This document shows positions 9,471 to 62,246 of a DNA stretch of 64,000 nucleotides, piece by piece; the stretch's first letter is position 1; every line of letters begins with the position of its first letter. The stretch is from Mustelus asterias (Eukaryota): NCBI RefSeq assembly GCF_964213995.1, contig NW_027590275.1, positions 248,001-312,000 of the forward strand, given 5' to 3'. A model generated the notes under the pieces. That model was not told the DNA's origin. It saw only the letters and a program-made list of their open reading frames with translations, and searched no databases. The position numbers and the translations under genes were made by a program.

Positions 9471-10035
9471 ATAAAAAAATTAAGCAATGTCTCAATTTTA
9501 ATATTCTTATCTGTGTTTCCAAAACCCTCCTTGTCCTCAGCTCTTCCTCCCTTTCATCACCTCCAGCATAACAATCATCTGAGATATCTGACCTCCTATG
9601 ATTCTGCCCTCGTGAGCATCCGTGATTTGGTTCATTCCACCACTGATGATCGTAATTTCAGCTCTCTGGGTTTCAGCTCTGGAATTCCCTCTCTCAATGC
9701 CCCTGCTTCTCGCTTGCTTTCCTCTCTTTCATTTTTGTCGCCTGTTTCCTTCATTTATTTCCTCCTTCCTATCCCGTGGGTCTCACAGTTTGCACCCTCT
9801 GACTTTCCGCAGTCCTTCGGCCGCTTTAACTGCTGTCAACGAATTATAATTATACAACTATAATTTTCCGCGTGGTTCCACTTTAAGGATTATTTCCGCC
9901 TCCAGCTCTTTGATTTCTCATTGGTTTCAGCTCCGGATCGAATTGAATGACGCAATGACGCTGGGCAGGGAGTGACGCTGCGCGAGTTGCGCAGGAGCGG
10001 CGCATTCCGATTGGGCAGTGAGTTACGATTGGGTA

Positions 10036-11613
10036 GAACACAGAACATAGAACAGTACAGCACAGAACAGGCCCTTCGGCCCACGATGTTGTGCCGAGTT
10101 TTATCTGAAACCAAGATCAAGCTATCCCACTCCCTATCATCCTGGTGTGCTCCATGTGCCTATCCAATAACCGCTTAAATGTTTCTAAAGTGTCTGACTC
10201 CACTATCACTGCAGGCAGTCCATTCCACACCCCAACCACTCTCTGCGTAAAGAACCTACCTCTGATATCCGTCCTGTATCTCCCACCACGAACCCTATAG
10301 TTATGCCCCCTTGTAATAGCTCCATCCACCCGAGGAAATAGTCTTTGAACGTTCACTCTATCTATCCCCTTCATCATTTTATACACCTCTATTAAGTCTC
10401 CCCTCAGCCTCCTCCGCTCCAGAGAGAATAGCCCTAGCTCCCTCAACCTTTCCTCATATGACCTACCCTCCAAACCAGGCAGCATCCTGGTAAATCTCCT
10501 CTGCACTCCTTCCAGCGCTTCCACATCCTTCCTATAGTGAGGTGACCAGAACTGCACACAATATTCCAAATGTGGTCTCACCAAGGTCCTGTACAGTTGC
10601 AGCATAACCCCACGGCTCTTAAACTCCAACCCCCTGTTAATAAAAGCTAACACACTACAGGCCTTCTTCACAGCTCTATCCACTTGAGTGGCAACCTTTA
10701 GAGATCTGTGGATATGGACCCCAAGATCTCTCTGTTCCTCCACAGTCTTCAGAACCCTAACTTTGACCCTGTAATCCACATTTAAATTTGTCCTACCAAA
10801 ATGAATCACCTCACATTTATCAGGGTTAAACTCCATTTGCCATTTTTCAGCCCAGCTTTGCATCCTATCTATGTCTCTTTGCAGCCTACAACAGCCCTCC
10901 ACCTCATCCACTACTCCACCAATCTTGGTGTCATCAGCAAATTTACTGATCCACCCTTCAGCCCCCTCCTCTAAGTCATTAATAAAAATCACAAAGAGCA
11001 GAGGACCAAGCACTGATCCCTGCGGCACACCGCTAGCAACCTGCCTCCAATCCGAAAATTTTCCATCGACCACCACCCTCTGTCTTCGGTCAGACAGCCA
11101 GTTGCCTATCCAATCGGCCAACTTTCCCTCTATCCCACACCTTCTCACTTTCATCATAAGCCGACCATGGGGGACCTTATCAAACGCCTTACTAAAATCC
11201 ATGTATATGACATCAACTGCCCTACCTTCATCAACACACTTAGTTACCTCCTCAAAAAATTCTACCAAATTTGTGAGGCACGACTTGCCCTTCACGAATC
11301 CGTGCTGACTATCTCGGATTAATCCGCATCTTTCTAAATGGTCATAAATCCCATCCCTAAGGACCCTTTCCATCAATTTACCAACCACCGAAGTAAGACT
11401 AACCGGTCTATAATTACCAGGGTCATTTCTATTCCCTTTCTTAAACAGAGGAACAACATTCGCCATTCTCCAGTCCTCTGGCACCATCCCCGTGGCCAGC
11501 GAGGACCCAAAGATCAACGCCAAAGGCTCTGCAATCTCATCCCTTGCCTCCCAAAGAATCCTAGGATACATTTCATCAGGCCCAGGGGACTTCTCGACCT
11601 TCAGTTTATTCAA
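10036..11613 (-). mobile_element. Young 5'-truncated CR1/HER1 LINE with an uninterrupted 498-aa ORF2 segment (complete RT domain, no endonuclease)
   Basis: ORF 10117-11613: [41 protein letters not shown]; tail ttctatgttctgtgttct. Confidence 0.96.
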
Positions 11614-11993
11614 AAAAAGAAGATGTCAATCACATTGAGGGCGTGTATTGCCATCAGCGCGGTCTGCGATTGGTTAGAATTGGGAGCGTCATTTTCAGTG
11701 TTCTCACAGTTCAGCAGGATGGAGCTCACGGATTGGATAAAGTAGCTGTCACTCATTCGGCGCAGAGCGTCCATTGGATAACCGCGATGGGTCAATTTCC
11801 GATTGGTTTTCCCAGCTGCCGGTCACAGGCCGTTGGCGGGGATTTACCCCGGGCCCATCAGACACCGCGCGGAGCGGCAGCAAATGTCCCGCAAGTGGCT
11901 TCAGTCCCCGGGCCCGGATCCTGAGCCCGCGGCGGGGCTCGGGATGGCGGGAGGGTTTCGGCAGCAGGAATCCCGTCCTGCCCGGTTGTAAAT

Positions 11994-15751: not shown

Positions 15752-16972
15752 TAGACGACGAAGGATACTCTGTCCACCGTGTCCCGTGTTTGTCTTCTGA
15801 GGAGGTCGGTGCGGTTTTTCGCTGTGGCGCGTCGGAACTGTCGACCGATGAGTCGAGCGCCATATCCTGTTCTTGTGAGGGCATCTTTCAATGTCTGGAG
15901 GTATCCGTTGCGATCCTCCTCATCTGAGCAGATCCTGTGTATACGGGAGTTAAAAACCTCACCAACCTCCTCAGAAGACAAACACGAGACACGGTGGACA
16001 GAGTATCCTCCGTCGTCCAGTACTTCCCCGGAGCAGAGAAGTTACGGCATCTCCTCCGGAGCCTTCAACATGTCATTGATCAAGACGAACATCTCGCCAA
16101 GGCCACCCCACACCCCCACTTCTCGCCTTCAAACAACCGCACAACCTCAAACAGACCATTGTCCGCAGCAAACTACCCAGCCTTCAGGAGAACATTGACC
16201 ACGACACCACACAACCCTGCCACAGCAACCTCTGCAAGACGTCCTGGATTATCGACACGGATGCCATCATCTCACGTGAGTACACCGTCTACCAAGTACA
16301 CGGTACCTACTCTTGCAACTTGGCCAGCGTTGTCTACCTGATACATTGCAGGAAAGGATGTCCCGAGGCATGGTACATTGGGGAAACCATGCAGATGCTA
16401 CGACAACGGATGAATGAACACCGCTCGACAATCACCAGGCAAGACTGTTCTCTTCCTGTGGGGGAACACTTCAGCGGTCAGGGGCATTCACCTTCTGATC
16501 TTCGGGTAAGCGTTCTCCAAGGCGGTCTTCACGACACACGACAGCGCAGAGTCACTGAGCAGAAACTGATAGCCAAGTTCCGTACACATGAGGACGGCCT
16601 AAACCGGGATCTTGGATTTATGTCACACTATCAGTGACCCCCACTGCTTGCCTCCTGGACTTGCAGAATCTCACTGGCTGTCCTGTCTGCAGACAATGCA
16701 CATCTCTTTAACCTGTGCTTAATGCTCCCTCCACTCACATTGTCTGTATCTTTAAGACCTGGTTGGCTGGAGAGATTTACATTCTAATCAGTATTCTGTA
16801 ACTTGATTTTGTGTCTCTGTATGCCCTGTTTGAGAGCAGATATCCACTCCAGCTGACGAAGGAGCAGCGCTCCGAAAGCTAATTGCGGTTGCTACCAAAT
16901 AAACCTGTTGGACTTTAACCTGGTGTTGTTAAAACTCTTACTGTGATTACCCCAACGCCGGAATCTCCACAT
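15752..16972 (+). mobile_element. Penelope-like element 3' part (GIY-YIG endonuclease remnant and pseudo-LTR) with an inverted 5' segment at 15752-15945
   Basis: VVYLIHCRKGCPEAWYIGET..RQRMNEH..GEHFS..GLNRDLG; pLTR with ctgacgaaggagcagcgctccgaaagct and aataaacctgttggactttaacctgg. Confidence 0.92.
16845..16890 (+). ncRNA. Minimal hammerhead-ribozyme-like motif in the Penelope pLTR
   Basis: CTGACGA, stem II GGAGC/GCTCC, then GAAA and short palindromic AGCT; hammerheads are an established PLE feature; activity not shown. Confidence 0.65.
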
Positions 16973-19310: not shown

Positions 19311-20392
19311 ACAATGGATTATGAGGGATCCAATGGACACTCAGTGCTTCCATTTGTGAAGCCAAGGATCCTATCCACTTTGCGAACGACTGTCCGAAAC
19401 TATCTCACTTTCAAATATCTCCCTGAACCTCACTCCCTCTGAGCCTGCACACTGTTTAGAACTGGACCATTCAGTTTATTTTGCCTCTCCCCATCTCTTC
19501 TGTGAAAAGGCAGCACTGTTCCTGAGTGTGGGATTAATAATGTGTCTCTTCCACAGTATCAGTGAGAACTGATACTGCAGCTTCTGTTTCTCCAAGAGAA
19601 TCTTTCTGGCTAAAGCCAGAATTTACAAGGATTTCTGTCACTGAGACATTGTCTGGCCGTCTGTGTCTCGCCGCCCTAACTCACTCTGTCTCTGTCTCTC
19701 CCTCCACCCACTCTCATCGAGTCTATGTGAAGGCGGAATATTGTTGTTTAGTGACTGAGTGCACACAATCTGTATCTTCATCTGATCAAATAGAATTCAG
19801 CTTGTGAACAATATCATCATTTCAACCAGTTCTGGGTTAAATCAGGCACAGCTCTGATTGGCTGCAGCCCCCTGAATCTGGGGAGCAGCACTGGCCTCAG
19901 AGGCTTTTACAGTTACTGAGCCGGGAAACTCCAACAAATCCCTGAGAATCCACAGCACAGAGCGAGAGGAAAGCCTGGCCTGGGAGCTGTCAATCTGAGA
20001 CACAGTTTGACCCTGTCAATGTGCAGATGTGAACCTGCTCCTTCCATTCCCAAACTGTTATAACCAAGAATACAGAACGCCCAGTAATGACCAGCTTGTT
20101 GCAATGTGTTTGAATGAACATGATGTGATATCATCGAAGCAGCATTTTGAAATATTCATTCAATGTATTCTGATTAAATGTATTTTTATGCTCTGTGTGC
20201 ATTCTTATGCCATTGCATAAGAATCTTCCTCTGACATGAGACCGTGTTTTGCCTTTGTGCCTTGATGCTGCTTTAAAAAAACATGTTCATGTTCTGAATT
20301 TTCTCATCGAACCATAGGAAGAATTATAGAAAAATAACAGCACAGAAGGAAGCCATTGAACCTATCCTGCCATGCCAGTCCAAGGACACAGC

Positions 20393-20880
20393 AAGAAATC
20401 TCACAACACCAGGTTAAAGTCCAACAGGTTTATTTTTTTAAATACTTTTCCAATTCAATCAAATCAAATCCAATTCAGAGTCTCAACAAGTTGAGACATT
20501 TCAGATCCAGGCTGACAAGACAGGGCGAGCGACCAAACCACCCTGTCCTGGGCCTGATCTACATGAGCCAAGCTGATTGGAGAAGGGGGAGGTTCCTCCT
20601 CCAAGACCTGAGCTCATTTGCATCTTAGCCAAAAGGCCGAGATGCCGCTTTTAAAAATTGCTTCATATGAATATGAAACATATGAAGCCTCAGCGTAACC
20701 TAATGACCTCGACCAAGTGCGGCCGACCATGGGCTGCCGTCCATACACTTGATCTTAGCCAAAAGGCCGAGGTTTATTTGGTAGTAAAAGCCACTAGCTT
20801 TCAGAGCGCTTGCAGCTCCTTCATCAGGTGAGTGGTATTCACGAACAGGGCATATAAAGACACAAATTCAATTTACAAAA
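20393..20880 (-). mobile_element. Penelope pLTR fragment split by the U2-headed element
   Basis: acaacaccaggttaaagtccaacaggtttattt | ggtagtaaaagccactagctttcagagcgc..ctccttcatcag. Confidence 0.85.
20436..20769 (-). mobile_element. U2-snRNA-headed short retroelement, copy A (TSD aggtttattt)
   Basis: U2 nt 8-35 at 20744-20771; second U2 stem-loop at 20622-20642; A tail; direct repeats at 20426-20435 and 20770-20779. Confidence 0.88.
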
Positions 20881-21033
20881 TAGTATGTCCTTTCCAAGCC
20901 CATCTTCCTGCACCCAGCCCGGAGCGATGCAGCTGAATGCATGATGGAGATCCAAATAATGCCAAATATTTGCGAGCCTTCTTCGAGTCAGTGGCTGCCC
21001 TGCAGCAGCGGAGCAAACATTTCAAATCACACC

Positions 21034-21111
21034 CGCTGCGCGCAGGGCTCGAACCTGCGCGGGGAAACCCCATTGGATTTCTCAACGCCTTAACCACTCG
21101 GCCATCGCAGC
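21034..21111 (-). pseudogene. tRNA-Ser gene with a 4-nt deletion in the anticodon arm
   Basis: GCTGCGATGGCCGAGTGGTTAAGGCGTTG^AGAAATCCAATGGGGTTTCCCCGCGCAGGTTCGAGCCCTGCGCGCAGCG; 78 nt instead of 82. Confidence 0.9.
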
Positions 21112-21432
21112 TGCTTATTTGCTGTTGTGATGTAACCGACTTAGCAACATTCACAGACCTTTATCAGGCACCGGAATGATGCAGAGCACAGCGGGCGAGC
21201 TGAAATTTGTTCGTCTCCTTTTAATTTGTATCTTTGTCTCTGATCCAGAACTCATTCACTAGTTCAGAGACTTGTTGTTCTTTTTCATTAACCTTTCATT
21301 AAAATCAAGTTGAACCCGAATTCTGCATCCGAAAAATAAAACGAAAGCATCAAGTCCACTTTATTTCATTGCAGTCAAATGTTGCGTTTAAACCACATGA
21401 GGGCGCTGATAATGTCCAATACACATTACCAA

Positions 21433-21504
21433 TGCGATGGCCGGGAATCGAACCCGGGTCAACTGCTTGGAAGGCAGCTATGCTCACCACGATACCACCA
21501 CCGC
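21433..21504 (-). tRNA. tRNA-Gly(TCC)
   Basis: GCGGTGGTGGTATCGTGGTGAGCATAGCTGCCTTCCAAGCAGTTGACCCGGGTTCGATTCCCGGCCATCGCA; cloverleaf intact, A14>C variant. Confidence 0.9.
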
Positions 21505-22254
21505 TCGCTCCGCTCATGTAATTGTTATTTTCATCAGTTATAATTACAAAACTACCTTAGCTTCTGATTTCAGCAGACAGAAGGTATGTCCTTGGGACAT
21601 TTTTTTTACCTGAACTTGGCTTGTCTCATTTTTCTGGACAGTTTTAGCCACCTTTTTGCGATTGCTTCTGACTGATAACTCTGATTAGATTTGCGGCCTG
21701 TTCTTTCATTTGAACAAAGTTTCCACTGAACGGAAATTGAAGCTGGATTTTATGTCAGAAACACATGGATGATGAGAATATTTGCTGATTTTTTTTAGAA
21801 CTTTCCCCCTTCTGTTCTGACTAAATAAGTCTAATTAAATAAGTCAACACTCTGAAGGTCAGGAACTGACCCTTGGTCAAATGCTCGCACAGTCACCACA
21901 ACACCACCTGGCTCTGTCACCCCCTCTGTATTTATAGAACGAAGCAATGAAGTGGCAGAGAAATCACAGCTGAGAGAATTCTGTAACCGACATTCCTGTT
22001 CTGGGAGTTTTACACTTTCCGATAGATCGGGGTGAGCAGGGTCGCCCAATCAGAAAGCAGATCCTTGGGACATGGAATTTGATTAATATCATGTTTTGCA
22101 ATCATGTTAATCGGTAAGGACCATGTTGATGTAATTTCACTCCAATCTGTGAAGGTTTGTTTGAATCGTGACCTTGTTGCACAACTTGCGTTCAGCCAGG
22201 AGATGGCAGCAGGGACCAATAATTTGGATTTGCTGTTTGTGTCAATAAATCTCG

Positions 22255-24590: not shown

Positions 24591-24839
24591 AAAAAAATTC
24601 ACACGAACCGGATCAATGTCAGCCATATTCCTTGCCAGTTCTCAGACAGGCACTGATTGGTTCGAAGTTTGTTTCATCTTTCAGGGTCCAGCTCAATTAA
24701 ATAAATGTATTTCTTATGTTCTGTGTGTCATTTATAAAAACCTTCCTCTGACATGAGACCTTGTTTTGTCTTTGTGCCCCTGTTGATGCCTTTGTCACTC
24801 TGCTCATGCTTTGATTTTCCTCATGGCACCTTAGAAAGA

Positions 24840-25107
24840 GTAAGAGTTTAAACAACACCAGGTTAAAGTCCAACAGGTTTAAAGATCTGGTTGGCTGTAG
24901 GGATTCACATTCTAATCAGTATTCTGTAACTTGATTTTGTGTCTCTGTGCCCTGTTTGAGAGCACATTTCCACTCCATCTGACAAAGGAGCAGCGCTCCG
25001 AAAGCTAATGGTATTTGCTACCAAATAAACCTGTTGGACTTTAACCTGGTGTTGTTAAAACTCTTACTGTGTTCACCCCAGTCCAACGCCGGCATCTCCA
25101 CATCATG
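24840..25107 (+). mobile_element. Solo Penelope pLTR with an inverted partial copy at its 5' end; 12-bp TSD accttagaaaga
   Basis: TSD at 24828-24839 and 25108-25119; 24841-24880 is the reverse complement of about 25027-25067; hammerhead-like ctgacaaaggagcagcgctccgaaagct. Confidence 0.88.
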
Positions 25108-25317
25108 ACCTTAGAAAGAACCAGAGAAATGTAACAGCACCGAAGGAACCCATTCGGCCTATCTTGTCCTTGCCAGACTGAGGACACTCAGGTGTCCTTT
25201 CCAAGCTCACCTTCCTGTTATGTAGCTGAAAGCATGCTGGAGATCCAAAGAATTCATTCCAAAAAAATAGGATTTGCAATTCTGTGGCTGCCTAAAGCAA
25301 ACATCTCCAATCACACT

Positions 25318-25399
25318 TGCTGACAGCAGGGTTCGAATCTGCATGGAGAAACCCCCTTGGGTTTCAAATCCAACGCCTTAACCACGCAGCCACGGCAGC
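25318..25399 (-). pseudogene. tRNA-Ser(TGA) pseudogene
   Basis: GCTGCCGTGGCTGCGTGGTTAAGGCGTTGGATTTGAAACCCAAGGGG..; full length, substitutions in the A and B boxes. Confidence 0.85.
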
Positions 25400-25404
25400 T
25401 GCTT

Positions 25405-25643
25405 CCTTAAAGAGTGAAAGCAAATCACTGCGGATGCTGGAATCTGAAACCAAAAGAGAAAATGCTGAAAAATCTCAGCAAGTCTGGCAGCATCTGTAAG
25501 GAGAGAAAAGAGCTGACGTTTCGAGTCCAGACGATCCATTGTCAAAGCTTTGACAAAGAGTCATCTGGACTCGAAATGTCAGCTCTTTTCTTTCTTTACA
25601 GATGCTGTCAGACCTGCTGAGATTTTCCAGTATTTCATCTTTT
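25405..25643. mobile_element. Palindromic (fold-back) short element, PLE/hammerhead-related
   Basis: Arms of about 95 nt around tgtcaaag|ctttgaca (centre 25547/25548); absent from duplication unit 1. Confidence 0.8.
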
Positions 25644-25971
25644 GGCAGCTCTTATTTGTCTGAATAATGTAACCACCTCAGTAACGTTCACATTAACTTC
25701 ATCAGGCACCAGGATTGCGCAGCACACAGTGTGGGAGCTGAAATTTGTTCTTCTACTTTTACTTTGAGTCTTTGTGTCTGGCTGAAAATTCATTTATTCG
25801 GTCAGAGACTTGTTTTTCTCTTCCAATATTTTTCATCAAAAAATAATTATGTCCGAACAAAAAATGAAAAAGCTATCTGCATTTTATTTCATTCTTGTCA
25901 AATGTTTCGTTTGCCCTGTTTTTGTCCACTCAGTTTAAAGCACAAGGATAAGGTTCGAAATAAATGACCAA

Positions 25972-26043
25972 TGCGTTGGCCAGGAATCAAACCTGGATCA
26001 TCTGCTTGGAAGGCAGCTATGCTCACTCCTATACCACCATCAC
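25972..26043 (-). pseudogene. tRNA-Gly(TCC) pseudogene
   Basis: Paralogue of 21433-21504 with a damaged B box (GGTTTGATT) and acceptor stem. Confidence 0.85.
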
Positions 26044-27647
26044 TCACTCTGCTTAAACAACTGTTATTTTCATTAGTTATAATTAAGGAACTTCCTGAGT
26101 TGCTGATTTCATCAAACACCAGATGTGTCCACAGCACAGTTTGTAATTTGAACTTGGCTTGTCTCGTTTTTCTGGACAGTTTAGGCCAGCTTTCGTTTTA
26201 CAATTGTTTCTGACTGAGAACTCATTGATTAGTTTTGAGGCCTTTTCTTTCATTTGAACAACGTTTCAGCTGAAAGCAAATTGAATGTGGATTTTACTTA
26301 ACAAACACAGCGATGATGAGAATTTTTAGTGAATTTTATTTTAGGAGTGCCCACCTACTGTTCTGACCTGCGATAGATAATTAAGTGAATTACCACTGTG
26401 ATGGCCAGGAACTGACCCTTGGTCAAATGTTCGCACAGTCACCACCATCACTCACCTGGCTCTGCCACCCCCTCAGTAAGAAAGTCCAGCTCTGACACTG
26501 AATCTAGTTACCTTCGGGCCCAATTGGAGGATGGTCAGAAACTGTCTGCCACTGTCAGAAACTCCATTATCAGCGAGTGGGGGATGATTATTTAACTGGC
26601 TGTCACTGGTTGTTGAGGTTGTGATTTACTGTTACCTGTCAGTGCAAGAGAAACAAATAAAACAGGAAAATTGAGAGACTCCGAGAGCAGATAATTTGTC
26701 CTTCGCCCTAAAGAAACACAATCATGTCTCCAATCGCTATAATAACTGAAAAAACCCCAGATATAATTGGCTGTGGCCGCGAATCTGGTGAACAAATGTG
26801 GCCGTACACCACATGGACTGCAGCGGTTCCAGAAGGCAGCTCACCACCACCTTCCCAAGGGCAATTAGGGATGGGCAATAAATGCTGACCCAGACAGCGA
26901 CACTCACATTCCATGAATGAATTCAAAGACAATCTGCAGGGAGGGGGCTTCAGAGTGTTTAACAGTTACCGAGGTGAAAAACTCTAACGAACCCCCCGGA
27001 ATACAGAAGAAAGGCTAAAAGGAGGAGAAATTCCGTCCTGGGACCTTACATTTGGTGAAAGTTTTGTCCTGTGAATGTGCAGATGTGAATATTGTGTAAG
27101 AGAGAGTGTATGAAAGGGACGGGCGGTTCAGACTAATCCAACTGTGTTTGTGTGTCTGTTCTGATCATGACATCTCCGAGTCTCTCTTGTGTAAAATAAA
27201 ACAATTTTCCAATCAAAGATTCCCTTAATCCCCCTGCTGAGCCCCAAAGTTAGATTTCAAGGCAATTGTTTCGCTAAATTGAAGAATTCAGTGGCAAAGT
27301 AGAGAACATGTCAGCTATCGCGTGTGAGAGCGCGATCAGTGCAGCAGTAAAACGGGTTTCAGTGGAAAACGGAGTACTCAGTTCGAGTGAAACCTTTTCA
27401 ACAGCAAACATTCGTGTGTCAGAGACATGAAGGATGTGAGCTGGATCTCTGGAGAGGTGGAATTTCATTGCAGTGGGAGAGTTTGTGAGGAGAGAGAAAC
27501 ACAGAGAGGCTGGAGGAGCCGGGAGCTGACAGCAGCTTGTCTCTGCTCCGTCCGCTCTCTGCCTTCAAGTTGCTCTGTGCCGCCACCACTGGGTTCATTT
27601 CGGATCCAGTTCTGACTCTCACACAGATTTTCCACACACTCTCGGAT

Positions 27648-31739: not shown

Positions 31740-32401
31740 CGATCTCCTGTTAACGATTCTAGTGTTTGAATTCCCAGGACAGAATATTCCCAGGACTCCA
31801 GTACTGAAACCTCTCAATGTTACAATTAACCCTCCGTTGCATTGGGGTCACTCATATCTCCAATCCTTTGATGGTTAGAGTAAAAACGGTGCCGTTAACA
31901 ATTCTACAACAATTTAATTTTAAAGTAGTTTTATTAAACCTGCGATCATTTCAGTTTCCGAGCAATAATTCCGCAAATCCAGTTTCTCCGCACGTGTTTC
32001 GAGTTGCAGCGAGAGTGTTGAAAATTGTGTCAATTAAGTTCAGAATATGAAGCATGCCTCCAACAGTAATCCACTCACACAGATATAGCCATTGCAGGAA
32101 CGCTTGCACATTCGCATAGACAATTAACACTTTTCCAGATCCAGTGACTGACTTTGAAAACCGATGGGCTGCAGATGAATATCCTCGCAGATTATCACAT
32201 TTTAAAGCAATTATATTTGAAATAGGATCATTTCAGTTCACTGGGATGGTTTCCCCGATAAACAGCAGCAACTTGCATTAAAATACTGTCTGTGTCAATC
32301 GTACGGATTGATAGAACAAAGCGGGAAACAGCTGTGCTGTGAATAGCAGTGCAGAAACTGACCGATAGACACCAGGTCGCCCTTTTTCAGATAAAGTGAG
32401 T

Positions 32402-32417
32402 GGCTCTGAAAAGAGCC
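32402..32417 (-). terminator. Histone 3' stem-loop (H2A)
   Basis: Reverse complement GGCTCTTTTCAGAGCC ACTCA. Confidence 0.93.
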
Positions 32418-32447
32418 TTTGGGTTATCAGATTAAAGAATGGTCGCT

Positions 32448-33167
<720 letters not shown>

Positions 33168-34800: not shown

Positions 34801-34814
34801 TGAGCTTCATAGTG

Positions 34815-37161
34815 AGAGTGTAGAATTAACTCTCTCTCAATCGATCATTGTGTGTGGGTGCGGAATTAACCCTGTCTCAATCTATTCGTGTGTGTCAGTG
34901 TTGAATTAACTCTCAATCTATTACTGTGAGAGTGTGTGGAATTAATTCTCAATCGATCATTGTGTGAGAGTGTGGAAGTAACTCTCAATCTTTTATTGTG
35001 TGAGAGTGCGGAATTAACGGTCCCTCAATCTATTACTTGTATGAATGTGGAATTAACTGTCTCTCAATCTATTACTCAATGTCACTGTGGAATTAACTCT
35101 CAATCTATTACATTGTGTGAATGTGGAATTGACTCTCTCTCAATCAATTACCGTGTGTCAGTGTGCAATTATATCTCAATCTATTACTGTGTCCGAGCGG
35201 GGAATTAACTCTCCCTCAATCTTTTACTGTGTGCCAGTATTGAATTAACTCTCTCTGAATCTATTACTGTGTTTGAATGTGAAATTAACTCCCTCTCAAT
35301 CTATCATTGCGTGTGAGTGTAGAATTAACCTTCTCTCAATTACTGTGCGCGAGTGTGGAATTATCTCTCTTTCAATCAAATACTCTGTGTGTGTGGAATT
35401 AACTCAATCTATTACTGTCTGACTGTGGAATTAACTCTCACTCAATCTATTACCGTGTGAGAGTGCGGAAATAACTCTCTCTCTCAATCTGTTAAAGTGT
35501 CAGCGTGGAATTAACTCTCTCTGTCTATCTATTACTGTGTCCATGTGCAATTAACTCTCAATCTATTTTTGTGTTCGTGTGTGGAATTAACTCCCTCTCA
35601 ATCTATTACTGTGTGAAAGTGTGGAATTAACTCTCTCTCAATCTATTACTGTGTGTGAGCGTTGAATTAACTCACTCTCAATTTATTCCTGTGTCAGTGT
35701 GGAATTAACTCTCTCACAATCTATTACTGTGTGTACGTGTGGAATTAACTCTCTCTCAATCTGTTGCTGTGTGAGAGCATGGAATTAACTCTCAATCTAT
35801 TCCTGTGTGTGAATGTGGAATTGACTCTCAATATATTAGTGAGAGAGTGTGGAATTAGCTCTCTCTCAATCTATTACTGTGTGTCAGTGTGGAATTAACT
35901 CTCAATGTATTGCTGTGTGTCAGTGTGGAATTAACCCTCTCTCAATCTATTACTGTGTGTCAGTGTCCAATTAACTGTCTCAATCTATTATGGTGTGACA
36001 CAGTAATGGATTGAGAGAGAGTTCATTGCACTGTCACACCGTAATAGATTGAGACAGTTAATTGGACACTGACACACAGTAATAGATCGACAGAGGGTTA
36101 ATTCCACACTGATACACAGCAATACATTGAGAGTTAATTCCTCACTAACACACAGTAATGGATTGAGAGAGAGTTCATTGCACTGTGTTAGTGAGGAGTT
36201 AACTCTCTCTCAATCCATTAGTGAGTCAGTGTGTCGTTAAAACTCTCTCAATCAATTACTATGTGTGAGCGTGGAATTAACTCCCAATCTATTACTGTGT
36301 GTGAATGTGGAATTGACTCTCTCTCAATATATTACAGTGTGAGAGTGTGGAATTATCTCTCTCAATCTATTACTGTGTGGGAATGTGCAATTATCTCTCT
36401 CTCAATCTATTTGTGTGTGTCCATGTGGAATTAACTCTCTCTCAATCTATTGCTGTGTGTCAGTGTGGAATTAACTGTCTCAATCTATTACGGTGTGACA
36501 GTGCAACTAACTCTCTCGCAATCTATTAATGTGTGTCAGTATGGAATTAACATCATATTCTATGATTCTATTCTATGATTCTAACGCATTCTCAACCTAT
36601 TAATCTGTGTGAGAGTGTGGAAATAACTCTCTCTGATCTATTACTGTGCGTTACTGTGGAATTAACTCTCCCTCGATCTATTACAGTGTGTCAATGTGGA
36701 ATTAACTCTCTCTCAATCTATTATTGTGTGTGAGCGTGGAATTAACTCTGTCTCAATCTATTATTGTGTGTCAGTGTGGAATTAACTCTGCATCTATTCC
36801 TGTGTGCGAATGTGGAATTAACTCTCTCCCAATCCATTACAGTGTCAGTGTGGAATTAACTCTGTCTCAATCTATGACTGTGTGAGAGTGTGGAATTGAC
36901 TAGCTCTCATTCTAGTATCGTGTGTGGGATTAACTCTCTCTCAATTTATTACTGTGTGTGAGCGTGGAATTAACTCGCAATCTATTGCTGTGTGTCAGTG
37001 TGGAATTAATTCTCTCTCAATCTATTACTGAGAGAGAGCTTGGAATTAACGCCCAATCTATTACTGTGCATGAATGTGGAATTAACTCTCTCTCAATCTA
37101 TTGCTGTGTCAGTGTGGAATTAACTCCCTCCCAATCTATTGCTGTGTGTCTGTGTGGAATT
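34815..37161 (+). repeat. Minisatellite I, left part; ~36-40-nt unit gtgtggaattaactctctctcaatctattactgtgt
   Basis: Dozens of tandem degenerate units; inverted block at about 36000-36185. Confidence 0.95.
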
Positions 37162-38886
37162 AAGAACAAAGAACAAAGAAAATTACAGCACAGGAACATG
37201 CCCTTCGGCCCTGCACCAACCTTGCTGCCCAACTGAACTAAAACCCCGACCCTTCCAGGGACCATATTCTGCTATTCCCATCCTATTCATGTATTTGTCC
37301 AGACGCCCCTTAAAACTCACTATTGTATCTGCTTCAACCACCTTCCCCGGCAGTGAGTTCCAGGCACCCACCACCCTCTGTGTAAAAAACTTGCCTCATA
37401 CATCTCCTTTAAACCTTGCCCCTCGCACCTTAAACCGATGCCCCCCAGTAATTGACTCTTCCACCATTGGAAAAAGCTTCTGACTATCCACTCTGTCCAT
37501 GCCCCTCATAATCTTGTAGCCTTCCATCAGGTCACCGCTCAACCTCTGTCGTTCCAGAGAGAACAAACCAATTTTCTCCAACCTCTCCTCACAGCTAATA
37601 TCCTCCATACCAGCCAACATCCTGGTAAGTCTTTGCTGTACCCTCACCAAAGTCTCCACATCCTTCTGGTAGTGTGGCGACCAGAATTGAACACTATATT
37701 CCAAATGCAGCCTAACTAAGATTCTATAAAGCTGCAACATGACTTGCCAATTTTTAAACTCAATCCCCCGCCGACGAAGGCAAGCATGCCGTATGCCTTC
37801 TTGACTACCTTCTCCACCTGCATTGCCACTTTCAGTGACCTGTGTACCTGTTCACCCAGATCCCTTTGCCTATCAATACTCCTAAGGGTTCTGCCATTGA
37901 CTGTATATTTCCTATCTGTATTAGACCATCCAAAATGCATTAATTCACATTTGTCCAGATTAAACTCCATCTGCCATCTCTCCGTCCAAGCCCCCAACCT
38001 ACCTATATCCTGCTGTATCCTCTGATGGTGCTCATCGCTATCTGCAAATCCACCAACCTTTGTGTTGTTCGCAAACTAACAAATCAAACCAGTTGCATTT
38101 TCCTCCAAATCAGTTATATATATTACGAACAGCAAAGGTCCCAGCACTGATCCCTGAGGAACGCCAAATGTCACAGTCCTCCATTCAGAATCGCACCCTT
38201 CCACTGCTACCCTCTGTCTTCTAAGACCAAGCCAGTTCTGTATCCATGTAGCCAGCTCACCTCTGATCCCATGCGACTTCACCTTCTGCACCATTCTGCC
38301 ATGAGGGACCTTGTCAAAGGCCTTACTGAAGTCCTTGTAGACAACATCCACTGCCCTACCCTCATCAACCATCTTCGTCACTTCCTCAAAAAACTCGATC
38401 AAGTTAGTGAGACATGACCAGCCCTTCACAAAACCATACTGCCTCTCGCAAATACATCCACTAATTTCCAAGTGGCAGTAAATCCTGCAGCCAGTGAGGA
38501 TACAAACATTTCTCTCAAGGCCCCAGCAATTTCCTCCCTTGCCTCTCCCAGTATTTTGGGGTATATCCCATCAGGCCCTGGGGAATTGTCGACCTTAATA
38601 TTCCTCAAGAACCCCAACACTTGATCTCAACATGACTCAAACTATCAACACACCCTTTCCCAGATTCATTACCCACCAAGTCCTTGTCTATGGTGAATAC
38701 TGACACAATGAACTCATTGAATACCTCACCCATTTCCTCTGGCTCCACGCATAGATTTCCTCCTTTGTCCTTGATTGGGCCAACCCTCTCCCTGGCTATC
38801 CTCTTGCTCTTTATATATGTATAAAAAGCCTTGGTATTTTCCTTAATCCTGCCGGGCAATGATTTTTTGTGACCCCTTTTAGCCCT
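37162..38886 (-). mobile_element. CR1 LINE inserted into minisatellite I
   Basis: [22 protein letters not shown]; tail (ttctttg)n; frameshifted, with internal deletion. Confidence 0.93.
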
Positions 38887-38887
38887 A

Positions 38888-39960
38888 TATTAACTCTCTC
38901 TCCAATCTATTACTGTGTGCCAGTGTGGAATTAACTCTCAATCTATTACTATGTGTGTGGAGTTAAGTCTCCCTCAATCTATTACAGTGTCAGCGTGGAA
39001 TTAACTCTCTCTGTCTATCTATTACTGTGTCTGTGTGCAATTAACTCTCTCAATCTATTTTTGTGTTCGAGTGTGGAATTAACTCTCTCAATTTATTACT
39101 GTGTGAAAGTGTGGAATTAACTCTCTCTCAATCTATTACTGTATGTGAGCGTTGAACTAACTCACTCTCAATCTATTCCTGTGTCAGTGTGGAATTAACT
39201 CTCTCACAATCTATTACTGTGTGTACGTGTGGAATTAACTCCCTCTCAATCTGTTGCTGTGTGAGAGCATGGAATTAACTCTCAATCTATTCCTGTGTGT
39301 GAATGTGGAATTGACTCTCTCTCAATCTATTACAGTGAGAGAGTGTGGAATTAGCTCTCTCTCAATCTATTTCAGTGTCAGTGTGGAATTAACTCTTTCT
39401 GAATCTATTACTGTGTGGGAACATGAAATAACTCTCAATCTAATGCTGTGTGTGGGTGTGGAATTAACTCTCTCTCAATCGATTAGTGTGTCTGAATGTG
39501 GAATTAACTCTCTCTCAATCTATTACTGTGCATGAGTGTGGAATTAACATTTTCTCAATCTATTACTGTGAGAGAGTGTGGAATTAACTCTCTCAATCTA
39601 TTACTGTGTGTGAGTGTGGAATTAACGCTGTCAGCCATTCTCTGTTCATGTGTTTCAGTATGGAATTACATCAGTTCATCTATATTAGTGAATGCGAGGA
39701 TGGAATTAAATCTGTATTTGTTATTCACTATTACTGAATGTGAGTGGGACATTAACTCTCTGTTCATCGCTGTTATAGCATGTGAGAGTGGAATTAACTG
39801 TCAGTCTTGGTTATTGTGTATGAATGTAGCATTAACTCTTGCTCAGTAGAATTGAATGTGTAATTAACTCTGGCTGTGTTACTGTTTTTTAGTGTGAAAT
39901 TAATTCTCTATCCTTTAATCACCATCACTGTGTTTTTGTTTGGAATTACCATTGTGTCAA
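38888..39960 (+). repeat. Minisatellite I, right part, decaying distally
   Basis: Same unit; increasingly diverged after about 39630. Confidence 0.93.
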
Positions 39961-40069
39961 TCTCTGTTACTGCATCTGAATGTGTAATTCACTCCCTATC
40001 TATCAATAATAATGTGTGAAATTATCTCACTGTCTGTCAGTCTCTGTTACTGCATGGAAGTGGGTCACT

Positions 40070-43245: not shown

Positions 43246-43871
43246 TAAGAAGTTTTACAACACCAGGTTAAAGTCCAACAGGTTTATTTGGTAGCAAAAG
43301 CCACACAAGCATTCGAAGCTCTAAGCCCCTTCTTCAGGTGAGTGGGAATTCTGTTCACAAACAGAGTTTATAAAGACACAGACTCAATTTACATGAATAA
43401 TGGTTGGAATGCGAATACTTACAACTAATCAAGTCTTTAAGAAACAAAACAATGGGAGTGGAGAGAGCATCAAGACAGGCTAAAAAGATGTGTATTGTCT
43501 CCAGACAAGACAGCCAGTGAAACTCTGCAGGTCCAGGCAACTGTGGGAGTTACAAATAGTGTGACATGAACCCAATATCCCGGTTGAGGCCGTCCGCGTG
43601 TGTGCGGAACTTGGCTATCAGTTTCTGCTCAGCGACTCTGCGCTGTCGTGTGTCGCGAAGGCCGCCTTGGAGAACGCTTACCCGAATATCAGAGGCCGAA
43701 TGTCCGTGACCGCTGAAGTGCTCCCCAACAGGAAGAGAACAGTCTTGCCTGGTGATTGTCGAGCGGTGTTCATTCATCCGTTGTCGCAGCGTCTGCATAG
43801 TTTCCCCAATGTACCATGCCTTGGGACATGTCCCGAGGCATGGTACATTGGGGAAACTTTGCAGACGCTGC
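43246..43871 (-). mobile_element. Penelope-like element 3' end (GIY-YIG C-terminal part, pLTR, fold-back 5' end)
   Basis: RQRMNEHRSTI..GEHFSG..GLNRDIGFMSHY; pLTR ctgaagaaggggcttagagcttcgaatgctt; palindrome 43786-43871. Confidence 0.92.
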
Positions 43872-50170: not shown

Positions 50171-50440
50171 TTTTGAAAGTTATTACAGTCACTTATCAGG
50201 GATTCATTTGAGTGAATATGAAAACAGACCAATCTGATTGAGGTGGTTCCCCCAATCACAAGCCTCCTTACTAAATCAGGAAATACATTTTACAAAGAAT
50301 CTCCAGCGCCAGTTTGTCAGTGTGTAAAGATCCACCGGGAAATGTCCCCTGACTGTGGGTGTGAGGGACCGTTCTCCACAGAGGGACTGTGCGGGAGTGT
50401 GGGATTCCTTCAGGAACTGTGAATCTCTGGTAAAGTGTGT

Positions 50441-51182
50441 GAGTGTGGGATTTACTCACTCTCTAACACAGTGTGTGTGTGGAATTTACTCACTCTCTGA
50501 TACAGTGTGTGTGTGGGGGATTTACTCACTCTCTAACACTGTGTGTGTGTGGGATTTACTCACTCTCTGATACAGTGTGTGTGTGGGGGATTTACTCACT
50601 CTCTAACACTGTGTGTGTGGGATTTACTCACTCTCTGATACAGTGTGAGTGTGGGATTTACTCACTCTCTGATGCAGTGTGTGAATGTGGGATTTACTCA
50701 CTCTCGGATACAGCGTGAGTGTGGGATTTACTCACTCTCTGATACAGTGTGAGTGTGGGATTTACTCACTCTCGGATACAGTGTGAGTGTGGGATTTACT
50801 CACTCTCTGACACAGTGTGAGAGTGTGGGATTTACTCACTCTGATACAGTGTGTGAGTGTGGGATCTACTCACTCTCTGATACAGTGTGTGTGTGGGGGA
50901 TTTACTCACTCTCTGATACAGTGTGTGTGTGTGTGTGGGATTTACTCACTCTCTGACACAGTGTGAGAGTGTGGGATTTACTCACTCTGATACAGTGTGT
51001 GAGTGTGGGATCTACTCACTCTCTGATACAGTGTGTGTGTGGGGGATTTACTCACTCTCTGATACAGTGTGTGTGTGTGTGTGGGATTTACTCACTCTCT
51101 GATACAGTGTGTGTGTGGGGGATTTACTCACTCTCTGATACAGTGTGTGTGTGTGTGGGATTTACTCACTCTGATACAGCGT
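50441..51182 (+). repeat. Minisatellite II, ~36-44-nt unit gtgggatttactcactctctgatacagtgt(gt)n
   Basis: About 19 homogeneous tandem units; one more unit at about 52420 beyond the CR1. Confidence 0.95.
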
Positions 51183-51189
51183 GTGAGAC

Positions 51190-55674: not shown

Positions 55675-55870
55675 CACTCCTTCCTCAGGTGAGTGGAGAG
55701 TTGGATTCACAAACAGGGCATATATAGAAACATATAGAAACATGAGAAGCGCTCTGAAAGCTTGTGCTACCAAATAAACCTGTTCGACTTTAACCTGGTG
55801 TTGTGAGACTTCTTACTGTGCCCCCCCCCCCCCCCCCCGCCCCCCAGTCCAATGCCGGCATCACGACATC
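55675..55870. mobile_element. Penelope pLTR remnant with internal inversion and expanded C run
   Basis: gaaagcttgtgctaccaaataaacctgttcgactttaacctggtgttg; 55680-55730 in the opposite orientation. Confidence 0.75.
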
Positions 55871-60644: not shown

Positions 60645-62246
60645 AAGAACATAGAACATAGAACAGTACAGCACAGAACAGGCCCTTCGGCCCACGATGT
60701 TGTGCCGAGCTTTATCTGAAACCAAGATCAAGCTATCCCGCTCCCTATCATCCTGGTGTGCTCCATGTGCCTATCCAATAACCGCTTAAATGTTCCTAAA
60801 GTGTCTGACTCCACTATCACTGCAGGCAGTCCATTCCACACCCCAACCACTCTCTGCGTAAAGAACCTACCTCTGATATCCTTCCTGTATCTCCCACCAC
60901 GAACCCTATAGTTATGCCCCCTTGTAATAGCTCCATCCACCCGAGGAAATAGTCTTTGAACGTTCACTCTATCTATCCCCTTCATCATTTTATAAACCTC
61001 TATTAAGTCTCCCCTCAGCCTCCTCCGCTCCAGAGAGAACAGCCCTAGCTCCCTCAACCTTTCCTCATATGACCTACCCTCCAAACCAGGCAGCATCCTG
61101 GTAAATCTCCTCTGCACTCTTTCCAACGCTTCCACATCCTTCTTATAGTGAGGTGACCAGAACTGCACACAATATTCCAAATGTGGTCTCACCAAGGTCC
61201 TGTACAGTTGCAGCATAACCCCACGGCTCTTAAACTCCAACCCCCTGTTAATAAAAGCTAACACACTATAGGCCTTCTTCACAGCTCTATCCACTTGAGT
61301 GGCAACCTTTAGAGATCTGTGGATATGGACCCCAAGATCTCTCTGCTCCTCCACAGTCTTCAGAACCCTACCTTTGACCCTGTAATCCACATTTAAATTA
61401 GTCCTACCAAAATGAATCACCTCACATTTATCAGGGTTAAATTCCCTTTGCCATTTTCAGCCCAGCTTTGCATCCTATCTATGTCTCTTTGCAGCCTACA
61501 ACAACCCCCCACCTCATCCACTACTCCACCAATCTTGGTGTCATCAGCAAATTCACTGATCCACCCTTCAGCCCCCTCCTCGAAGTCATTAATAAAAATC
61601 ACAAAGAGCAGAGGACCAAGCACTGATCCCTGCGGCACTCCGCTAGCAACCTGCCTCCAATCCAAAAATTTTCCATCCACCACCACCCTCTGTCTTCGAT
61701 CAGACAGCCAGTTACCTATCCAATCGGCCAACTTTCCCTCTATCCCACACCTCCTCACTTTCATCATAAGCCGACCATGGGGGACCTTATCAAACGCCTT
61801 ACTAAAATCCATGTATATGACGTCAACTGCCCTACCTTCATCAACACGCTTAGTTACCTCCTCACAAAATTCTATCAAATTTGTGAGGCACGACTTGCCA
61901 TTCACGAATCCGTGCTGACTATCCCGGATTAATCCGCATCTTTCTAAATGGTCGTAAATCCCATCCCTAAGGACCTTTTCCATCAATTTACCAACCACCG
62001 AAGGAAGACTAACCGGTCTATAATTACCAGGGTCATTTCTATTCCCTTTCTTAAACAGAGGAACAACATTCGCCATTCTCCAGTCCTCTGGCCCCATCCC
62101 CGTGGACAGCGAGGACCCAAAGATCAAAGCCAAAGGCTCTGCAATCTCATCCCTTGCCTCCCAAAGAATCCTAGGATACATTTAATCAGGCCCAGGGGAC
62201 TTAACGACCTTCAGTTTATTCAAAACTGCCAGGACATCCTCCCTCC
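60645..62246 (-). mobile_element. Young CR1, same subfamily as 10036-11613, one frameshift; inserted into a V-SINE (60415-60644 and 62247-62355)
   Basis: ORFs 61417-62181 and 60728-61420 nearly identical to 10117-11613. Confidence 0.96.

Follow-up and report, generated by a model that had tools for sequence, protein, structure and literature searches.

How did a short U2-headed sequence come to lie inside a Penelope pLTR of this shark, and do its ends record an insertion event of its own? The sequence (copy A; 20436-20769, minus strand) is a U2-headed, A-tailed, non-coding insert of 334 nt, and it interrupts a fragment of a Penelope pLTR (20387-20882, minus strand). A second copy of the element (copy B) lies elsewhere in the window, by which we mean the whole 64-kb stretch of DNA that was analysed and to which all positions refer. 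We examine below the ends of copy A, the structure and abundance of the element, the machinery that may have placed it and its relation to known U2-linked elements.

Target-site duplication and restored Penelope site

An exact-match search located the 10-mer AGGTTTATTT at both ends of copy A, at 20426-20435 and 20770-20779. These represent the 3' and 5' copies, respectively, of a target-site duplication (TSD; both on the minus strand), the 3' copy reading AAATAAACCT on the element strand. The 10-mer occurs six times in the window, twice flanking copy A and four times in intact pLTRs, against a chance expectation of 0.24 (mean of shuffles). The longer pLTR sequence spanning the site, GTCCAACAGGTTTATTTGGTAG, is intact at 43273-43294 (plus strand), 16892-16913 (minus) and 25018-25039 (minus) and carries one mismatch at 55767-55788 (minus), the mean chance expectation being 0.00. 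The original prediction held that removal of the insert together with one repeat restores the pLTR seen intact at 43273-43294. We therefore reconstructed the empty site by joining 20393-20435 to 20780-20882 with one repeat kept, and aligned it to the pLTRs near 43, 16 and 25 kb (the copy near 55 kb was left out). The reconstructed site gave a gap-free junction with a 38-nt exact run across it in all three pLTRs, as predicted, whereas keeping both repeats forced a gap of 10 nt.

The predicted 10-bp TSD is thus confirmed, with limits that blur to 8-10 bp because the 5' repeat overlaps the U2 head by its final 2 nt. On the element strand these nucleotides read CT, as do U2 nt 8-9, and depending on how the overlap is assigned the head of copy A lacks 7 or 9 nt, in agreement with the truncation of about 7-9 nt proposed earlier. 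At the other end, the 3' repeat begins with three A that cannot be told from the tail, and TAAAC (5 bp) is the sole fully unambiguous duplicated part; by base composition, its chance probability is ~1e-3, and that of the whole 10-mer is 1.7e-6. The A tail itself is short (four A of its own, seven with the overlap) and is preceded by TTT. Hence, the target duplication at copy A is real. To speak of direct evidence of retrotransposition, as was done originally, is slightly strong: the duplication and the restored pLTR stand, and the empty site is deduced from paralogous pLTRs. No orthologous empty allele was found among the 15 joints listed from contigs of four sequencing runs (see below), and the listed joints over copy A reach at most 36 nt on their short side, all inside the pLTR.

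Within the window, the 3' piece of the host pLTR (20387-20435, minus strand) is 90-93% identical to the other pLTRs, and the 5' piece (20770-20882, minus strand) is 76-79% identical to them. The insertion point of copy A is the AATAAA hexamer of the pLTR, which we take to be its poly(A) signal, and insert and pLTR run in the same direction. Two Penelope copies served for comparison. In the first (16302-16945, plus strand), an intact pLTR comes after a frame with GIY-YIG (16302-16634); the Pfam GIY-YIG match of this frame is weak (E 0.0034, below the cut-off), and among its 35 homologues, of which five carry an RT domain (PF00078), the closest are from Mustelus asterias (90-91% identity) and Scyliorhinus torazame (86%), which marks the DNA as that of a shark. 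The second copy (43246-43829, minus strand) contains the intact site at 43273-43294. The host pLTR also bears a minimal-hammerhead-like motif (CAC-CTGATGA...GAAA-GCTA-GTG; 20792-20830, minus strand; class from PMC4209133). Its core is matched in two of five pLTRs, the host among them, and the fold predicted for the monomer does not resemble a hammerhead (z -0.67). Minimal hammerheads of the CTGANGA...GAAA kind are known from Penelope-like pLTRs, according to the accessible sections of PMC4209133. We considered hammerhead cleavage as a way for the element RNA to leave the host pLTR, and rejected the idea; the motif is present, and nothing favours such a role.

Copy B (32842-33167, minus strand; 326 nt) has a full head of U2 nt 1-38/39 and the same body as copy A. 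The two are colinear and align over 338 columns with 86% identity (identity in 222 of 247 columns of the core and in 64 of 83 of the head), the match being confined to 20434-20771 versus 32841-33160, with none past the element ends. The tail of copy B (7-8 A) adjoins the start codon (ATG, 32841) of an H2A with a frameshift, while its 5' flank is the remnant of a different SINE-like repeat. No TSD was detected at copy B, AGGTTTATTT being at neither end, and its mismatched flanks point to deletion or recombination after insertion. Because the flanks of copy B are unrelated, copy A is not a segmental duplicate of it, and the independence of the two copies that had been proposed holds. The lack of the motif in copy B also rules out that the repeat is part of the family consensus. 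The concern that other copies might be devoid of both TSD and A tail applies in part, since copy B has the A tail and no TSD, leaving a TSD in one of the two copies. The H2A beside copy B (32440-33167 region, minus strand) keeps its 3' stem-loop at 32378-32422; its upstream region is absent, and copy B and the SINE remnant stand in its place.

Copy A and its host pLTR belong to a tRNA-Gly(TCC) unit that is duplicated in the window (20170-21930 and ~24700-26480; 68-77% identity), and the paralogous unit (24697-25310) is devoid of both pLTR and element at the position of copy A. Each unit also has a decayed tRNA-like piece, and the region holds histone H1, H4, H3, H2A and H2B frames (named from translations) as well as four histone stem-loops. 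A separate Penelope insertion at 24828-25119, an inverted truncated pLTR with a 12-bp TSD (~24828-24839/25108-25119), is found ~65 bp from the paralogous position of copy A's host pLTR, two independent Penelope insertions having thus occurred in one small interval. Elsewhere in the window there are long tandem arrays with a period of ~35-76 nt (34808-40050 and 50417-51188), interrupted by LINE-like fragments and including an inverted block at ~35996-36186, and two RT-bearing LINE-like fragments (10035-11615 and 60646-62225) that are 97% identical, one of them with a 502-codon open frame.

Structure of the element and its repetition in four runs

No frame of 130 codons crosses either copy, and neither contains a tRNA, 5S or 7SL head. 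The exact U2 20-mer occurs twice in each copy. The outer U2 head of copy A (20744-20771; this and all features of copy A that follow are on the minus strand) comprises U2 nt 8-35, nt 8-9 being common to the TSD, and is followed by an antisense arm (hairpin H1, 20697-20720) that pairs with it. The predicted fold continues with hairpin H2 (20660-20688), a 10-bp perfect stem that forms the 5' limit of the core found at high depth in all four runs, H3 (20620-20645), which holds the inner U2 fragment, H4 (20564-20616), H5 (20504-20560), in which A and B differ by one two-sided change (G-C/A-U), and H6 (20480-20497), whose 7-bp stem is identical in both. The 3' end (20436-20476) is made up of ATTGA-like repeats, GGAAAAGTA, TTT and the short A tail. 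Rfam recognises U2 in copy B with E 2.8e-8 and in copy A with E 0.0088, the latter below the gathering score. In copy B, U2 nt 25-39 and the antisense arm are paired at 15 of 15 positions (10 Watson-Crick and five G-U). The paired span includes GUAGUA (letters in the Rfam consensus), the branch-point recognition sequence at U2 nt 33-38, which is partly lost from the outer head of copy A. The inner fragment, an exact 20-mer of U2 nt 8-27 (20622-20641), stops before that sequence.

Directly after the inner U2 fragment both copies carry ATGCAAAT (20616-20623, overlapping H3, and 33018-33025, minus strand), which we assume to be the octamer motif of snRNA and H2B promoters. We ascribe no promoter role to it, as three occurrences in the window against 3.85 expected give no enrichment; a bacterial promoter scan, whose model is not applicable to this DNA, returned no match. 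Common variants at 20612 and 20608 produce AGATCAAG after the octamer, as in U2 nt 24-31 (unphased; region 20609-20641), and it is possible that the inner fragment once extended further and was split by a short insert.

In both copies the predicted fold is far more stable than in shuffled sequences (z -7.99 and -7.28; none of 100 shuffles as stable), and the element strand folds better than the opposite strand (-148 versus -110 and -133 versus -99 kcal/mol). The number of credible two-sided changes between A and B is one, three of four having been discounted for their position in the poorly aligned H1 loop; the H5 pair 20554/20510 appears as G-C, G-U or A-U across runs (unphased). In the 12 variant rows listed for paired positions, the pair, judged one variant at a time, is kept six times and broken six times. 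A strand-neutral test for an excess of G-U over A-C, in which H1 of copy A and H5 of copy B were counted from faulty alignments, gave 7:2 for copy A (p 0.18) and 5:2 for copy B (p 0.45), and the ratio of 5:0 in H1 of copy B (p 0.06), which was chosen post hoc, is not significant either. These non-significant tests lend no support to ADAR editing or to RNA-level selection, and the evidence for selection on the structure of the element is thin.

To see whether the element is repeated, contigs of four runs (X1, X6, X8 and X13; four organism codes; four of the 22 listed) were aligned to 19950-21030. Summed contig depth, which we read as a rough sign of repetition and not as a copy number, reached 4.1e5-1.2e6 (X1), 1.8e4-6.6e4 (X6), 3.0e5-1.6e6 (X8) and 4.2e4-2.4e5 (X13) in bins of the body, versus 1e0-1e4 in flank bins outside the pLTR. 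Among the rows listed, a variant may occur in as many as 124 separate contigs. The body is highly repeated in all four runs, at roughly 100 to 60,000 copies per run, with single-copy depth judged by eye and overlap of up to 31-fold. The head behaves differently from the body: in the bin 20690-20726 the depth is 1.7e5 in X1, 6.1e3 in X6, 2.2e4 in X8 and 42 in X13, and the head/body depth ratio is 0.14-0.41, 0.09-0.35, 0.014-0.07 and 0.0002-0.001, respectively. Plain 5' truncation cannot account for a thousandfold drop of the head in one organism only; the drop would be explained either by lineage-specific 5' addition or by divergence beyond the 80% threshold, which looks alike. A scan of metagenome contigs for the element gave no matches, and a match to a viral contig (L001) was alike over 23 nt only and is taken as chance.

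Mechanism of insertion and alternative explanations

In view of the TSD and the restored pLTR, and of the U2 head and A tail, we think it likely that copy A is a SINEU-like retroposon placed in the Penelope pLTR by LINE-type target-primed reverse transcription. It would represent a single insertion of a short, non-autonomous, U2-headed and A-tailed shark retroposon into an older pLTR fragment, at its AATAAA hexamer. A LINE endonuclease would have made the first nick in the plus strand at 5'-TATTT/GG, the freed TTT-3'OH would have primed on the A tail of the element RNA, cDNA synthesis would have proceeded to U2 nt 8-10, and, once a second nick had been made at a distance of 8-10 nt, the 5' end would have been joined through the microhomology of 2 nt. 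Since the paralogous unit lacks this pLTR, and the element at its position, the duplication of the tRNA-Gly unit would have come first, followed by the Penelope fragment and then by copy A. Within the family, the core (H2-H6 plus tail, ~250 nt) is probably older, the outer U2 head and the antisense arm being a later 5' addition.

As for the enzyme, L1 prefers T-rich nick sites. At copy A, a T-rich first nick and the 2-nt CT overlap are present (one site); the nick preference used for comparison was that given in the available portion of PMC11838501. The likeliest enzyme appears, by analogy, to be an APE LINE from the L1/Tx1 group that uses poly(A), since the SINEU elements are linked to Tx1-Mar and the tail consists of A, and we hold this attribution with somewhat less assurance than the LINE-type mechanism itself. 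TSD length is not decisive on its own, because Penelope elements of rotifers make TSDs of 8-10 bp (PMC3846280, in part). The L1/Tx1-type priming that had been proposed agrees with the TSD, the A tail, the T-rich nick and the 5' microhomology, but is weakened by the 8-12-bp TSDs that Penelope gives and by the lack, in the 64-kb window, of a partner LINE sharing the 3' end of the element.

A possibility that we consider rather unlikely, and which is compatible with insertion by a LINE, is that copy A arose after the original insertion, as a segmental duplicate of it within a repeated tRNA-Gly/histone unit. An older paralogous unit is indeed present in the window, and in X1 a contig over 20283-20414 has a depth of 582 with two differences (low-depth contigs, 15-28), which suggests that the unit around copy A is itself repeated, while another X1 contig, over 20912-21030, has a depth of 114. 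However, these flank depths differ fivefold, depth being a poor measure, and none of the contigs listed joins flank and element.

We regard it as improbable that other machinery was at work, be it an RTE-type or other LINE, or a Penelope RT that left its pLTR template at AAATAAA for the A tail of the element and later returned, pLTR and insert being integrated as one. Penelope elements are described as producing TSDs of 8-10 bp and as capturing unrelated sequence in trans, although such trans-mobilisation puts pLTRs around the cargo with the TSD outside (PMC3846280, available sections), whereas here the TSD lies inside a split pLTR. Moreover, while the 12-bp Penelope TSD at ~24828-24839/25108-25119 and the common orientation of insert and pLTR suit a Penelope origin, copy B is not bordered by a pLTR on either side.

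It is more doubtful still that the family is one of functional structured RNA genes, such as an snRNA variant, with A and B merely its retrocopies. The Sm consensus is a U-run followed by G. The element has a U-run between H2 and H3 that aligns with the U2 Sm-site region (Rfam), but A, not G, follows it. Likewise, the folding z-scores and the single credible two-sided change would fit an RNA gene, yet no Rfam family matches at a meaningful score beyond the U2 5' end, and the 5' module differs between runs. Finally, that the repeat reflects chance or a family consensus and copy A is a segmental duplicate of copy B may be dismissed, for although the tail and the U2 head could each account for some of the 10-mer, half of it in all, the pLTR continues on both sides, and copy B has neither the motif nor a common flank.

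Relation to known U2-linked elements

The reading that we favour, a SINEU-like retroposon inserted by a LINE, makes copy A an ordinary insertion, and its TSD is a routine hallmark whose value is that it shows the U2-headed sequence moving as a unit. The host is equally familiar: as in the Penelope-like elements of PMC4209133 and PMC3846280, so far as the accessible parts describe them, there is a pLTR after a GIY-YIG frame, a CTGANGA...GAAA motif and an inverted truncated pLTR with a TSD (24839-25119), although the host itself (20387-20882) is merely a short pLTR fragment. The element, in turn, resembles the snRNA retrocopies made by L1 and the U-snRNA/L1 or Alu chimeras in its 3'-truncated U2 piece, TSD and A tail (PMC4494074, in part). 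Such chimeras are one-off events in that account, whereas here head, antisense arm and body are common to two copies and the body is highly repeated.

Another point of contact is offered by Keno (Tx1 clade) and Utopia, whose 3' flank starts at U2 nt 39 (available portions of PMC4640811 and PMC6136364), the head of copy B ending at nt 38/39. Unlike these, copies A and B are short, non-coding, outside U2 genes and not followed by downstream U2 sequence. We rejected their assignment to Keno or Utopia, as they have no RT/endonuclease coding and their 3' flanks are pLTR and H2A, not U2 nt 39 onward. The outer head may have originated through template switching onto U2 RNA, by which snRNA heads could be added and which is Kojima's favoured route (PMC4494074, available text), or through co-transcription from a copy inside a U2 gene, as the Keno/Utopia site match of copy B suggests (one full-length head).

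In the accessible sections of Kojima (2015, PMC4494074), SINEU elements have a U1 or U2 head, polyA, ~10-bp TSDs, recurrent 5' additions and a Tx1-Mar partner; none were found outside crocodilians, and their transcription is left open. We found no paper on a shark snRNA-headed SINE in the literature outside subscription journals, Repbase and Dfam, nor is one mentioned in the portions seen of PMC5381603, PMC7245038, PMC4758252, PMC5786205 and PMC11838501; the family may already be in Repbase or Dfam. As far as the same sections of PMC4494074 go, the likeness to SINEU (SINEU-1 with serial U2 additions, and SINEU-3) extends to a U2-derived 5' sequence, a length below 500 bp, the non-coding and A-tailed character, a TSD of ~10 bp or none, an internal oligo-T, the lack of a tRNA head, two serial U2 fragments, possible signs of later 5' addition and insertion into another transposon. 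The differences are that the host is a shark, not a crocodilian, that the targets seen are a Penelope pLTR and an H2A start (the flanks comprising pLTR, SINE remnant and H2A), where SINEU prefers Mariner-N4_AMi, and that the shark element folds into six successive hairpins and has an antisense arm complementary to the U2 head, features that those sections do not report for SINEU.

Of the SINEU class features that we tested, the shark element has the U2 head, the short, non-coding, A-tailed form and many copies of one structure. By host and target it would stand apart from SINEU-1, -2 and -3, its body having been set beside theirs by description only. Hence, the shark family is probably a further example of the rare U2-headed SINEU kind. 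A repeated shark family with at least four organism codes and a lineage-variable U2 head would, if true, provide a second vertebrate case for comparison. We also put forward, as a speculation with the odds against it, that this family arose independently of crocodilian SINEU, from a Keno-type Tx1 master residing in a U2 gene at nt 38/39, that it is transcribed from the U2 promoter, and that the 15-bp antisense helix masks the branch-point sequence, sparing splicing. Since the head ends at the Keno/Utopia site, the idea of a master copy inside a U2 gene is testable in any shark assembly, and such a master, together with a masked branch-point sequence, would, if true, answer how SINEU elements get transcribed.
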